From NCBI RefSeq assembly GCF_056712565.1, contig NZ_CM160072.1: 64,000 nt of DNA. One strand, 5' to 3'. Positions within the stretch are counted from its first letter, which is position 1. Each line of letters starts with the position of its first letter. A program made the position numbers. Below are positions 39,001-45,000 of the stretch, in pieces.

Positions 39001-42000
39001 ATACAATAGGTGATAATTCTTTCAGGATTTTGCTCAACTATGGCCTGATGGGAGAGTCATGACGGAACTAAGGCCTTTACAAGCCAGAAGATTAGTCTTA
39101 ATGCGATCACAGTTCAACTTGCTACGACTGAAATCCGTAATAGCATATAAACTCTGTTTTTTTAACAGAAATGAAGATCTTCTTGTTGCATAAATGATGC
39201 TTCTCTGCCTCTGAAAAAGTAAATATAAAGTATATTTAATAAGATTAATTTTTATGATAGTGATAATTTATGATGGGGATTCATATGGCATATCTAAAAG
39301 GATAGATTACATGTTGAATTCTACAACATCTTCGGGAAAAAGAACCGGCATTTTAGCAATTGGTGCCCATCCTGATGATATAGAATTAGGATGTGGTGCA
39401 TCTCTTTCATATTATTCTAATGAAAAAGTATATATTATATCTGTTGTCATGACACCTGGTTGCTGTGGCGCAGAGTATATTGATCGTCACAAGGAATCAC
39501 AAGAAGCATTAAATATGTTAGGATGCAATAAACTAATCCCTCTAAATTTTGAAGATACCAGATTATATTTGCAAATAAAAGAGATGATATCATCTCTGGA
39601 ATACATAATTGAGAATGAAACGCCCCAGGATGTGGAAATTACTCGAGTTTACACCATGAATAATACTGACAGGCATCAGGATCACATTGCTGTTTATCAG
39701 GCATCAATGGTTGCCTGTCGTTATATTCCTCAAATACTAGGATACGAAACACCAAGTACATGTCTGTCATTTTTACCTCAAGTTTTTGAATCTGTAGATG
39801 AGGTCCATTTTAATAAAAAAATATTAGCATTACAAAAGCATAAAAGCCAGATCCATCGAAGATACATACAGCCAGAATACATAATTGCTCAAGCCAAATT
39901 CCGAGGACAACAGGTTAGTCATTCTATGTGTGAAGGTTTTGTTGTCCATAAGATGGTGTTGTAACGGAGTAATAGAAATGAAAACTTTGTTATTTATCTT
40001 CATGACCATAGCAATGTTGCTATGGTTTTTAAGTACGCTAAGACGTAAACCCTGTCAAAAGAAAGGCTGTATTGACGCCATTATACCAGCTTATAACGAA
40101 GGCCCGTGTCTGGCGCAGTCACTGGATAATCTGCTGCGTAACCCTTATTTTTGCCGGGTAATTTGCGTTAACGACGGATCCACGGACAATACCGAAGCGG
40201 TCATGGCGGAAGTCAAACGCAAATGGGGCGACCGCTTTGTTGCCGTCACGCAAAAAAACACCGGTAAAGGTGGCGCACTAATGCATGGACTAAAATACGC
40301 CACGTGTGATCAAGTATTTTTAAGTGATGCAGATACTTTCGTTCCACCTGATAATGATGGAATGGGCTATATGCTGGCAGAAATTGAGCGCGGCGCTGAT
40401 GCCGTTGGCGGAATTCCCTCCACCGCGTTAAAAGGGGCAGGTCTGCTGCCACATATCCGCGCCACCGTAAAGTTGCCGATGATTGTTATGAAGCGCACGC
40501 TACAGCAGTTTCTGGGCGGTGCACCGTTTATTATCAGCGGTGCCTGCGGGATGTTCCGTACTGATGTATTGCGTAAGTTCGGTTTCTCTGATCGTACTAA
40601 AGTCGAAGACCTTGATCTCACCTGGACGTTGGTGGCAAACGGCTACCGTATTCGGCAGGCGAATCGCTGCATCGTATACCCACAGGAATGTAACAGTCCG
40701 CGTGAGGAGTGGCGCCGCTGGCGGCGTTGGATTGTGGGCTACGCGGTCTGTATGCGCCTGCATAAAAGACTTTTATTTAGCCGCTTCGGTATCTTCAGTA
40801 TATTTCCTATGCTGTTGGTTGTGCTTTATGGCGTTGGTATTTATCTCACTACCTGGTTTAATGAATTCATCACCACCGGGCCACATGGTGTGGTGTTGGC
40901 AATGTTCCCGCTTATCTGGGTCGGCGTAGTTTGTGTTATTGGTGCATTTAGCGCCTGGTTTCATCGTTGCTGGTTGTTGGTGCCTTTAGCACCGCTTTCC
41001 GTTGTGTATGTATTATTAGCTTATGCCATCTGGATTATTTATGGACTTATTGCCTTTTTTACTGGACGCGAACCTCAGCGCGACAAACCCACCCGCTATT
41101 CCGCACTGGTGGAAGCGTCAACCGCTTATTCCCAACCTTCTGTCACAGGAACTGAAAAACTATCTGAAGCTTAATGCTAAAGAGAAAAATGTTCAGATTG
41201 CAGACCAGGTGATTATTGATGAAAGTGCCGGTGAGGTTGTTATCGGCGCGAATACCCGTATTTGCCACGGTGCCGTTATTCAGGGGCCGGTAGTGATTGG
41301 CGCAAACTGCCTGATAGGTAATTATGCGTTTATTCGTCCTGGCACAATAATCAGCAATGGCGTAAAAATTGGTTTTGCCACCGAAATTAAAAATGCGGTT
41401 ATTGAAGCGGAAGCAACGATTGGTCCGCAATGCTTTATTGCCGACTCGGTAGTTGCAAACCAGGCATATTTGGGCGCACAAGTACGTACCAGTAATCATC
41501 GTCTGGATGAACAACCCGTGTCTGTTCGAACTCCAGAGGGAATTATCGCTACCGGATGCGATAAATTAGGTTGTTATATCGGGAAGCGTTCACGCCTTGG
41601 TGTACAAGTTATTATTTTGCCTGGGCGAATTATTTCTCCGAACACACAACTTGGCCCGCGCGTGATTGTAGAACGTAATTTACCTAGTGGAACTTACTCA
41701 CTCCGACAAGAACTTATCCGTACAGGAGATTAAAATGATAAAGCATACGTTATTAGTGCCGTTTTTTTTTAGTGCATTGCCCGCTTATGCCGGGTTAACT
41801 TCCATTACCGCGGGCTACGATTTTACCGATTATTCTGGCGAACATGGCAACCGTAATTTAGCGTATGCTGAACTGGTAGCAAAAGTTGAAAACGCAACGC
41901 TGCTTTTTAATCTTTCCCAGGGGCGTCGTGATTATGAAACTGAACATTTCAATGCCACTCGCGGCCAGGGTGCAGTCTGGTACAAATGGAATAACTGGCT

Positions 42001-45000
42001 GACAACCCGAACGGGTATTGCCTTTGCGGATAATACGCCGGTCTTTGCCCGCCAGGATTTTCGACAGGATATTAACCTAGCCCTGTTGCCAAAAACGCTT
42101 TTCACGACCGGTTATCGCTACACTAAATATTACGATGATGTCGAAGTCAATGCCTGGCAAGGCGGCGTATCACTCTATACTGGCCCGGTGATCACCAGTT
42201 ACCGCTATACCCATTATGACTCCAGCGATGCAGGTAGTAGTTATAGCAATATGATTTCCGTGCGTCTGAAGGACCCGCGCGGTGCTGGTTATACGCAACT
42301 ATGGCTAAGCCGCGGAACAGGTGCTTACACCTACGACTGGACGCCAGAAACACGCTACGGCAGCATGAAGAGCATCAGTTTGCAACGAATTCAACCGCTG
42401 ACTGAGCAACTTAATCTCGGGTTGACGGCAGGTAAAGTGTGGTTCAACACCCCAACCGATGATTATAACGGTCTGCAACTTGCAGCCCACCTGATCTGGA
42501 AATTCTAGGCAGCAGTCTATCAGTATATTTTATTCGGTAGTTTTCAGAGAAAAGCTATAACTCGGTTTGATAATAAACAATATAATTGGATTTGCCCCTA
42601 TATTTCCAGACACCTGTTATCACTTAACCCATTACTGGCTTGCTGCCGTAGATATTCCCGTGGCGAGCGATAACCCAGTGCACTATGCGGATGCCATTCG
42701 TTATAATGCTCGAACGCCTCTGCAAGGTTCTTTGCTGCCGTTAACCCGTCTGGTTTGGGCATGACACTGATGTAGTCACGCTTTATCGTTTTCACGAAGC
42801 TCTCTGCTATGCCGTTACTCTCCGGACTCCGCACCGCCGTGCTCTTCGGTTCAAGCCCCAACATCCGGGCAAACTGCCGTGTTTCATTAGCCCGGTAGCA
42901 TGAACCATTATCCGTCAGCCACTCTACTGGAGACGCCGGAAGCTCGTTGCCGAAGCGGCGTTCCACCGCTCCCAGCATGACGTCCTGTACTGTTTCACTG
43001 TTGAAGCCGCCCGTAGTGACCGCCCAGTGCAGTGCCTCACGGTCACAGCAGTCCAGCGCGAACGTGACTCGCAGTTTTTCTCCGTTATCACAGCGGAACT
43101 CGAACCCGTCAGAGCACCATCGCTGATTACTTTCTTTCACAGCCACTCTGCCTGTATGTGCCCGTTTCGATGGCGGTACAGCAGGTTTTCGCTCAAGCAA
43201 CAGCGCATTCTGGCGCATGATCCGGTAAACACGTTTGGCATTGATCGCAGGCATACCATCAAGTTCTGCCTGTCTGCGAAGCAGCGCCCATACCCGACGA
43301 TAACCATACGTGGGCAGCTCTCCGATAACATGGTGTATACGGAGAAGCACATCCGTATCATCAGTGTGACGACTGCGGCGGCCATCCATCCAGTCATCGG
43401 TTCGTCTGAGAATGACGTGCAACTGCGCACGCGACACCCGGAGACAACGGCTGACTAAGCTTACTCCCCATCCCCGGGCAATAAGGGCGCGTGCGCTATC
43501 CACTTTTTTGCCCGTCCATATTCAACGGCTTCTTTGAGGAGTTCATTTTCCATCGTTTTCTTGCCGAGCAGGCGCTGGAGTTCTTTAATCTGCTTCATGG
43601 CGGCAGCAAGTTCAGAGGCAGGAACAACCTGTTCTCCGGCGGCGACAGCAGTAAGACTTCCTTCCTGGTATTGCTTACGCCAGAGAAATAACTGGCTGGC
43701 TGCTACACCATGTTGCCGGGCAACGAGGGAGACCGTCATCCCTGGTTCAAAGCTCTGCTGAACAATTGCGATCTTTTCCTGTGTGGTACGCCGTCTGCGT
43801 TTCTCCGGTCCTAAGACATCAATCATCTGCTCTCCAATGACTAGTCTAAAAACTAGTATTAAGACTATCACTTAAATAAGTGATAGTCCTGATACAAGTT
43901 TTTAGAGTAGTCATTAGTGAACAGATAATTGTTAACTTAGAACCAGTAAAATGCAAACGACGCACCACGCTGGGAAAATCGCTGCTATTCAGCAGAGTTT
44001 TGTACCGAGAATTGTGGCCAGCCACTTATTGCTCTCGCGTAAGCAGGTATCCCCATCGTTTACCAGTCCAGCACATCTTGTGGTCAGACAGAAGAAGAGC
44101 AAACTGTTACTGGACTCACTGCATGCATGGTGGAGAAAAATGCCACGCTATCCAAAAATCCAGACTGGGTGAATGGTTCAGCTGTGTACTGAATCAGTGG
44201 GGCGCACTCTGTTATTACAGTGTTGACGGTCAGGCGGAGGCAGACATAATGCCGCGGAAAAAGCCCTTTGTGCCATCTGTCTCGGAAATAAAAACTCTTA
44301 TGACCTTTGTCAAATATTAAGCCCAAAAAGACCTTACGCAGCTCCGGGAGCTTCGTTATATCGCGGATTAAAGAACCTGAAACAGTCAGACTGTATCTTG
44401 GATTTTACAAACTCTTATTCGGGGATTTTAGCCCCATGACGATTTACGCAGTGAGCTGGCCTCTTTCTACGTGCAGGTATTAGCGCATTCTGGCTTCCCT
44501 GAATTCTTTTACGAGGATCACTCATTCCGTGTCTGACTGCTTCAGGGTTTAATTTTGCTTCTGCTGACTGAATGATGATTGGGCAGCAAGTGCAATATCC
44601 CACATAAATCCAGTCAACTCACGAGCCACCGCCGTAATGGCTACTTGTGATTTTTTCCCTTTTGCTGTCAGACTTCGGTAACGAGAACACAATCGTTGTT
44701 GAGCTTTCCATGCAATATCTTTGGAATATTGTGTTACAGAGTCCGGTCGGTAATATATAAGCCATGCCCCAACTTTTGCAGGTGTACGATAAGACCAGGC
44801 GGCTTCGTAAAGCAGACGTCTCAGTTCGCTGTTTCCAACTTTTGTTATTCCTCTGGGACGAATACTGTTTCCACTGGAATATTCACCTGGCACCAGTCCC
44901 AGAAAAGCCATGAGCTGTTTGGGATTGGAAAATCGCGAAAAATCACCCAGTTCAGCAACCAGAGTTATTGCAATTAGCTGACCAACACCTTTAAGAGCCT

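Follow-up and report, generated by a model that had tools for sequence, protein, structure and literature searches.

An intact yaiS-yaiP-yaiX-yaiO cassette next to the colibactin island of B2-type Escherichia coli and its possible role in glycan export

Four genes of the yaiS, yaiP, yaiX and yaiO types lie side by side on the plus strand at positions 39311-42508 of a 64,000-nucleotide (nt) stretch of contig NZ_CM160072.1 from the RefSeq assembly GCF_056712565.1, the whole of which is called the window here. The window belongs to a B2-type Escherichia coli chromosome and is collinear with that of the strain Nissle 1917 at 99.99-100% identity, reaching 100% over the cassette region. In K-12, the genes yaiS-yaiP-yaiX'-yaiO (b0364, b0363, b4579 and b0358) reside between tauA and frmR, and therefore the copy in the window is a second, intact and island-borne paralogue of that locus. 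The four products can be assigned to families and folds, from which we infer a mechanism, and the cassette is tentatively read as a mobile synthase-dependent system for glycan export, a reading that falls a little short of probable. The yai genes themselves have already been known as y-genes; what is new is that they are read as one system and that an intact copy is recognised in B2 strains, Nissle 1917 among them. One reason why the cassette has escaped notice is the double damage to the K-12 copy. The original prediction, which held that no product or function had been assigned to this module, was right as to the product, but a phenotype is on record: according to EcoGene 3.0 (PMC3531124), which refers to a meeting abstract, repair of yaiX' in K-12 brings about vegetative clumping in a YaiP-dependent manner. 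Such clumping fits a surface adhesive glycan.

That the four genes are co-directional and tightly packed, as had been predicted, was borne out by their open reading frames (ORFs) and spacing, and a comparison of the loci confirmed that their order and sizes are those of yaiS-yaiP-yaiX'-yaiO in K-12. The first ORF, yaiS-like (39311..39964, 217 amino acids (aa)), encodes a predicted zinc deacetylase of the PIG-L/LmbE family and is followed after 13 nt by the yaiP-like gene (39978..41174, 398 aa) for a membrane synthase of glycosyltransferase family 2 (GT2). The yaiX-like gene for a left-handed β-helix (LbH) acyltransferase comes next (41041..41733, in a frame open from 41023), and then, 1 nt further, the yaiO-like gene for an outer-membrane β-barrel (41735..42508, 257 aa). 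Shine-Dalgarno (SD) sequences are found for yaiS (AAGGA), yaiP (GGAG) and yaiO (AGGAG). We place the start of yaiS at ATG 39311, while the Prokaryotic Genome Annotation Pipeline (PGAP) uses ATA 39302 (220 aa). These four ORFs are not products of chance, because all of them give strong family hits (PF02585, PF00535/PF13632, Hexapep and PF19413/TIGR04390), because the ratios of nonsynonymous to synonymous substitution (dN/dS) between the island and core alleles lie within 0.09-0.28 (0.14, 0.09, 0.21 and 0.28 for the four genes), and because syntenic orthologues exist in distant taxa.

The K-12 locus shares gene order and orientation with the island copy, and homology between the two starts at yaiS and stops at the stop codon of yaiO. 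For YaiP, YaiX and YaiO, the island and core proteins share 95-98% of their residues, and the overall nucleotide identity is about 90%; YaiS is about 65% identical in amino acids and 67% in nucleotides, and its dS is saturated. Along 39330-42510 the similarity forms a mosaic, with 60-80% identity over yaiS and the first 90 nt of yaiP, 79-87% over 40268-40467, 100% over the 500 nt of 40668-41167, and 79-100% over the remainder. This pattern suggests recombination or gene conversion between island and core copies within E. coli. About 830 complete genomes contain the island allele at 99% identity or more, and about 4000 contain the core allele, which is about 90% identical; both copies co-occur in some B2 genomes, and the record of Nissle 1917 has two match places. 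The intact island copy adjoins the colibactin island in Nissle 1917, NU14 and other B2 strains, while the K-12 copy carries two lesions, since the insertion sequence (IS) IS2 splits yaiX and YaiS is truncated. K-12 YaiS (185 aa; 8060-8617 of the locus record) ends 38 residues early and lacks the FRGQQ...EGF motifs; a small gene, ykiC, occupies the spacer left by this truncation. In CFT073 the core locus is present with yaiS annotated as a pseudogene (5507-5932 of the locus record); other strains have the core locus intact.

The order of the four genes is also kept in distant taxa. It is to be mentioned that the peptides by which the YaiP alignment was scanned against genomes were generic for GT2 enzymes, and that only four of the 77 listed loci are true orthologues; the taxonomic breadth given here is based on these four orthologous loci and targeted look-ups of contigs, and is not a census. 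Contiguous PIG-L, GT2, LbH and YaiO genes in the same order are present in E. whittamii, Citrobacter sp. FP75, Stenotrophomonas maltophilia and a metagenome-assembled genome of Pseudomonadota, as well as in two further metagenomic lineages, Stenotrophomonas contigs, an Acinetobacter baumannii contig with Rep3 and MobA/MobL genes, and an E. coli IncF plasmid. In none of the cassette lineages examined is there a fifth conserved gene, and the flanks and upstream DNA vary among them. YaiO matches are found in 56 plasmid records, 38 of them conjugative, and by its divergence plasmid YaiO can be sorted into at least four classes, whose identities range from 97% to 51%. Diverged copies of the cassette reside on virulence plasmids of enterotoxigenic E. 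coli (ETEC) and Shiga toxin-producing E. coli, and on an Acinetobacter plasmid; one ETEC copy adjoins genes for the heat-labile (LT) toxin and is cut by IS3. Identity across lineages is 55-61% for YaiP, about 50% for YaiX, 42-49% for YaiS and 28-40% for YaiO, and YaiP is 61-69% identical across gammaproteobacterial orders. That these genes recur together, in unchanged order, in several taxa and on plasmids argues that the module is a self-contained, horizontally mobile cassette. As a separate observation, the actinobacterium Mumia quercus has a YaiP-like GT2 gene (32% identity) about 3 kb from a YaiS-like PIG-L gene (36%) on the opposite strand (7001-7750 and 11059-11595); no LbH or barrel gene was seen in their vicinity, and the two genes may be related to the synthase-deacetylase pair, in a Gram-positive organism.

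What kind of synthase is YaiP? It matches the Pfam families Glycos_transf_2, Glyco_tranf_2_3 and Glyco_trans_2_3 without any extra domain, and its best curated family is PgaC_IcaA (TIGR03937; E 9e-29), although the score of 100.6 bits is below the cutoff of 422.3. When aligned with E. coli PgaC by hhalign (99.5% probability, 29% identity, 275 columns), YaiP pairs with it at NDGSTD, DxD and (T/V)ED, and PgaC QRLRW is placed against R247-W-R-R-W251; the alignment also covers the N-terminal transmembrane (TM) helix, the interface helix and the first C-terminal TM helix. Among 23 sequences, D66, D117-A-D119 and E210-D211, which align with NDGSTD, DGD and TED of PgaC, are invariant. In the AlphaFold2 model (predicted local distance difference test (pLDDT) score 79), one TM helix at the N-terminus precedes a GT-A domain, which is followed by an interface helix and by three TM helices at the C-terminus. 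The whole-chain fold of YaiP, interface and TM helices included, matches processive GT2 synthases, the best full-length matches being polymer synthases, while a sequence-only search of the PDB gave matches confined to the GT-A domain. Thus, YaiP is a distant relative of PgaC with the fold of hyaluronan and cellulose synthases, and its fold class and motifs suggest that it would be processive and translocate its product. A relationship to NfrB was ruled out (hhalign probability 1.8%). The protein is about 380 aa long in most lineages; in the window its tail is disordered from residue 374, and the last 25 or so residues are enterobacterial and overlap yaiX. An antisense RNA within K-12 yaiP has served as a control reporter (PMC4666370).

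YaiS and YaiX are predicted to act in the cytoplasm, because both lack a signal peptide and YaiX requires acyl-coenzyme A (CoA). YaiS belongs to PF02585 (E 4.5e-21) and carries neither signal peptide nor lipobox. In 11 orthologues the AHPDD motif is nearly invariant and H-Q-D-H is invariant, and so nearly is the C-terminal FRGQQ...EGF motif; we take AHPDD and HxDH to be zinc ligands from what is established for MshB and BshB. Its closest solved structures are the archaeal diacetylchitobiose deacetylase 8BGN and BshB 6P2T, while its score for the BshB1 equivalog (TIGR04001) is 66.2 bits with a cutoff of 182.5. By its family, YaiS is a PIG-L zinc deacetylase. YaiX has hexapeptide/LbH domains and scores 130 bits against Arch_glmU over residues 49-216, below the cutoff of 292 for the full length, because the nucleotidyltransferase domain is absent from YaiX. 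It aligns with ST0452 (5Z09) at E 1.3e-22 without a gap over 157 residues, and Asn331 of ST0452 is conserved as Asn158, followed by the invariant H159-R-L-D. It is thus predicted to be a hexapeptide acyltransferase of the GlmU/ST0452 type. Overexpression of the K-12 YaiX fragment or of the 236-aa form is reported to alter drug tolerance (PMC13058169), which says little about the native function.

Where does yaiX begin? As had been noticed from the window, its frame has no Met codon beyond the yaiP stop and offers an in-frame GTG at 41209. Of the two options given in the original prediction, a 150-nt overlap with yaiP or this GTG, the overlap is the favoured one, but the list was incomplete, as RefSeq also uses CTG. 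Public records place the start of yaiX in no fewer than four ways: at GTG 41209 in PGAP (174 aa), at CTG in other RefSeq records (193 or 197 aa), and at upstream ATGs in EcoGene and KEGG (230 and 236 aa); the corresponding candidates here are ATG 41041 (230 aa, 134-nt overlap with yaiP) and ATG 41023 (236 aa, 152-nt overlap). Most members of the YaiX family are 204-206 aa long with the N-terminus M-W-W, and the WW maps to 41107-41112, upstream of the yaiP stop. In non-enteric lineages the junction of the GT2 and LbH genes reads ...ACGAGGTxCGCC(A/G)TGTGGTGGCGTGA, in which GAGG provides the SD sequence and the start codon precedes the GT2 stop, the two genes overlapping by 14 nt. The 14-nt overlap is found in four such lineages, and GAGG was read in two of them; this arrangement indicates that synthesis of YaiP and YaiX was probably coupled ancestrally. 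E. coli YaiP has since gained a variable disordered tail of 19 residues, and the WW codons are now inside yaiP. Even when the enterics compared are divergent, the stretch of the yaiX frame from WW to the β-helix is still recognisable as WW[KQ]R..[IL].P..L......YL.L while the overlapping YaiP tails are not conserved, and because of this the coding sequence of yaiX most likely begins upstream of 41107, at ATG 41041 or 41023. With a start at GTG 41209, YaiX would be without the first β-helix rung and some 35 residues that belong to the family.

Three other lines of argument about this overlap were discarded. Its lack of substitutions is not evidence for dual coding, as the entire 40668-41167 is identical to the core copy; similarity of the X frame upstream of WW is a by-product of YaiP conservation and does not locate the start; and a YaiP-YaiX fusion by programmed +1 frameshift was rejected, as there is no prfB-like slippery site. 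A database cluster of 15 sequences does show a YaiP-YaiX fusion, in which ...SVTGTE is followed at the junction by NYLKLN..., because one A is lost from the A5 run GAAAAAC (41155-41159). These fusions are either natural alleles or assembly errors at a homopolymer; if real, they hint that the two proteins act side by side.

YaiO scores 183.9 bits against TIGR04390 (cutoff 32) over residues 22-257 and hits PF19413 at E 1.2e-26. Its Sec signal peptide ends at AYA/G, and its model (pLDDT 89) is a barrel of 14 strands with short loops, the nearest folds being CymA and OmpG, which are sugar-conducting monomeric channels. Thus, the outer-membrane barrel predicted for this gene stands with 14 strands, but its nearest folds are these channels and not PgaA or BcsC. 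The monomeric 14-stranded channels CymA, OmpG and Omp33 are only 8-10% identical to YaiO, which amounts to no relationship at the level of sequence, and they serve uptake and are not encoded beside a synthase, whereas the cassette of YaiO includes one. Because YaiO is the sole envelope component of the cassette and is always last in the operon, it would be the exit pore. YaiO has a small family of its own, with 170 representative clusters found at E <= 0.001 in a set of 1.84 billion proteins. Distant proteins with a YaiO domain are 440-610 aa long, with the barrel at the C-terminus and unrelated N-terminal regions; one of three such proteins (P0320, beside P0310 and P0330) has a SPOR peptidoglycan-binding domain (E 3.4e-6). 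Tetratricopeptide repeat (TPR) regions, which had been expected in these distant proteins after the example of PgaA and BcsC, gave no significant hit. In the literature, YaiO is solely listed as an outer-membrane protein, and a K-12 yaiO knockout had no phage phenotype in the BASEL screen.

How might these parts work together? YaiP in the inner membrane would polymerise a sugar of the N-acetylglucosamine (GlcNAc) type from a uridine diphosphate (UDP)-sugar at the cytoplasmic face and thread the chain across the membrane; a UDP-GlcNAc-type donor is suggested because YaiP is homologous to PgaC and because the two partner families act on GlcNAc or glucosamine. YaiS may remove the N-acetyl group from GlcNAc on a precursor, a primer or the nascent chain, before or during polymerisation, and YaiX may re-acylate the freed amine or O-acylate the sugar by using acyl-CoA. 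As deacetylation and acylation would take place on the same side of the membrane, an exchange or patterning of N-acyl groups before export seems most economical. The N-acyl pattern would then be edited in the cytoplasm, unlike the periplasmic trimming by PgaB, and YaiO would let the product through the outer membrane to promote cell-cell adhesion on or near the cell surface. Deacetylation followed by acylation is a familiar logic, as in NodB/NodA, LpxC/LpxD and the teicoplanin pair Dbv21/Dbv8.

The original prediction compared the cassette with the Pga system part for part. The overall logic of a synthase with an outer-membrane pore holds, but the part-for-part membership does not. PgaC of PgaABCD/IcaADBC is a detectable homologue of YaiP with the same catalytic motifs, and Pga/Ica shares with the yai cassette the logic of synthase, deacetylase and outer-membrane barrel as well as the aggregation phenotype. 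However, YaiS is a signal-less PIG-L/LmbE protein while PgaB is a periplasmic CE4 lipoprotein, so that no deacetylase of the Pga type is present; neither a PgaD-like partner nor a cyclic di-GMP module was found in the cassette, where there is no fifth ORF and no extra domain in YaiP; and YaiO is not a porin of the PgaA type, which has periplasmic TPRs and a 16-strand barrel. Judged from the sequences, the cassette thus appears to have nothing of Pga beyond distant homology of the synthase. Class I hyaluronan synthases (HAS) and BcsA are 14-17% identical to YaiP and have six to eight TM helices against four; the Gln of their motif is Arg in YaiP, which also lacks PilZ or any other regulatory domain. 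The cassette is therefore best described as an uncharacterised variant, with a minimal synthase of the HAS/PgaC fold, two cytoplasmic editors and a scaffold-less pore of 14 strands. The known synthase-dependent exopolysaccharides of E. coli are cellulose, poly-N-acetylglucosamine and the Nfr polymer, and they shape biofilm formation, phage adsorption and host interaction. It may even be that Gammaproteobacteria have in this cassette, carried by plasmids and islands, a glycan secretion system that has so far gone unrecognised and is the fourth synthase-dependent one in E. coli; its product would be a hitherto undescribed N-acyl-glucosamine glycan, edited in the cytoplasm and exported through a 14-strand pore without a periplasmic scaffold, and the intact copy in Nissle 1917 and uropathogenic E. 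coli would serve aggregation or colonisation, but a claim of this extent is rather doubtful at present. If a surface glycan is indeed made, it would be a new determinant of adhesion, immune recognition or phage reception in probiotic and pathogenic strains, and its four genes would be a compact export device unlike the TPR-porin architecture, which to our knowledge is shared by all characterised synthase-dependent systems.

Several findings weigh against glycan export as read here. At the QxxRW position of YaiP, RW is kept but Q is replaced by an invariant Arg, and its four TM helices are fewer than those of the channel-forming BcsA or HAS, so that YaiP would need to oligomerise or to find a partner for translocation; of the processive synthase that had been predicted, the fold and the GT-A motifs are supported, while the number of TM helices and this substitution are not in its favour. 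The structural neighbours of YaiO are diffusion channels rather than exopolysaccharide porins, and it has no periplasmic scaffold. The nominal reactions of YaiS and YaiX are opposite to each other. His308 of ST0452, which we take to be catalytic as is His363 of E. coli GlmU, aligns with Pro135 of YaiX, followed by Gln136, in the invariant GPQCF motif. At the homologous junction of E. coli (...ACCCGCTATTCCGCACTGGTGGAAGCG) the ancestral SD sequence, the ATG and the GT2 stop are all lost, and damaged copies of the cassette are frequent, as in K-12, CFT073 and the ETEC plasmid. Moreover, an SD sequence precedes none of the candidate yaiX starts in E. coli, with which PMC13058169 agrees, and for this reason the efficiency of yaiX translation in E. 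coli is uncertain.

Some of these features would suit a product like a Nod factor. In the NodC-NodB-NodA(/NodL) pathway, as in the yai cassette, a small membrane GT2 is combined with a cytoplasmic de-N-acetylase and an acyltransferase acting on a GlcNAc chain. YaiP would then make short GlcNAc oligomers, YaiS would take the acetyl group off one terminal residue in the manner of NodB, YaiX would re-acylate or O-acetylate that residue in the manner of NodA or NodL, and the product, which would diffuse out via YaiO, would be a soluble or lipid-anchored signal or surface molecule and not a matrix polymer. With about 380 aa and one N-terminal plus three C-terminal TM helices, YaiP is small for a translocating synthase, and in size and TM layout it presumably resembles NodC. 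The nearest solved relative of YaiS, diacetylchitobiose deacetylase, has as its substrate the non-reducing GlcNAc of an oligomer; oligosaccharides diffuse through CymA and OmpG without the help of a periplasmic scaffold; and both modifying enzymes are predicted to be cytoplasmic as in the Nod pathway. However, YaiP scores 30.3 bits against the NodC equivalog (TIGR04242; cutoff 550) and PgaC is the better match; the Nod enzymes are not orthologous to those of the cassette, which uses PIG-L and LbH folds in place of CE4 (NodB) and NodA; the cassette has no ABC exporter of the NodIJ type, and has a dedicated outer-membrane barrel in addition; and clumping suits an adhesive polymer better than such an oligomer. 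A Nod-factor-like product is therefore considered unlikely.

Another explanation is that the cassette in E. coli is cryptic or decaying cargo, silenced and/or incompletely translated, and that its persistence in B2 strains just comes from clonal inheritance of the island. The 30% GC of the upstream region would be typical of silenced DNA acquired horizontally, the promoter signal there is not above chance, the initiation signals of yaiX are eroded in enterics (likewise PMC13058169), many copies of the cassette are inactivated, and IS elements flank or invade the locus. Against decay, all four ORFs are intact here and in the roughly 830 genomes with the island allele at 99% identity or more, dN/dS between alleles is far below 1, the 500 nt that do not differ from the core copy speak for ongoing gene conversion, and, as far as the EcoGene account goes, a single repair in K-12 restores clumping. 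Decay of this kind is quite improbable. Least probable of all is a glycolipid head-group pathway, in which a non-processive YaiP would add one GlcNAc to a membrane lipid, YaiS would deacetylate it, YaiX would N-acylate it and YaiO would help the lipid to arrive or to function in the outer membrane: the combination of a glycosyltransferase with a PIG-L enzyme has precedents in the biosynthesis of glycosylphosphatidylinositol, hopanoids (HpnI/HpnK), mycothiol and teicoplanin, but the best full-length matches of YaiP in fold and sequence are polymer synthases, the RW of the acceptor motif and the ED base are invariant in it, and we know of no role in glycolipid transport for a 14-strand barrel of the open-channel type.

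Between the cassette and the divergent ibrA-like gene lies an AT-rich non-coding spacer of about 30% GC (38330..39310), and the upstream region 38250-39450 has 29-37% GC. The AT-rich promoter region that had been proposed is AT-rich indeed, but a promoter was not recognised in it, since sigma-70-like sites are at chance level (14 against 12.7 +/- 4.1 expected from shuffled sequence). Of all the sigma-70-like sites in the region scanned, the one that scores best reads on the minus strand (39948-39921) and falls on the 3' end of yaiS, just upstream of yaiP; a terminator scan gave no signal exceeding chance. For the AT-rich leader, RNA elements such as a riboswitch were ruled out, as an Rfam search gave no match at E <= 1. 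The spacer shares no homology with the DNA upstream of other cassette lineages, and no conserved regulatory block was seen among them. In other B2 strains, IS3-family or IS1 elements are inserted in it. Presumably, the spacer contains the promoter of the cassette, and it is likely to be an H-NS target.

On the island, the genes are arranged in the order of colibactin (clb/pks), ldtA-cobTSU, a TonB-dependent receptor, a divergent ibrB/ibrA-like pair, the AT-rich spacer, the module and IS elements. The ibrB-like (ParB-type) and ibrA-like (3'-phosphoadenosine 5'-phosphosulfate reductase-type) genes occupy 36411-38263 on the minus strand, divergent from the cassette, to which they are unlinked in other taxa; the IbrA-like protein has weak similarity to the PADLOC models BrxP and DndC. 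For the four cassette genes themselves, a role in anti-phage defence was rejected, as PADLOC gave no hit among them. The TonB-dependent receptor gene (33894-36040) is split into two ORFs (33867-35024 and 35021-36040), one C being absent near 34974 in comparison with the single coding sequence of 2148 nt in Nissle 1917; either the gene is a pseudogene by frameshift or the base was missed in sequencing. Outside the cassette, its 3' context is marked by an IS2 on the minus strand (42588..43917, its ends placed by inference from the layout of IS2A in K-12), which sits 79 nt past the yaiO stop at a site that is empty in Nissle 1917. A second element absent from the otherwise identical Nissle 1917 island, ISEc45 of the IS110 family, lies within an IS66 remnant at 44303-45741.

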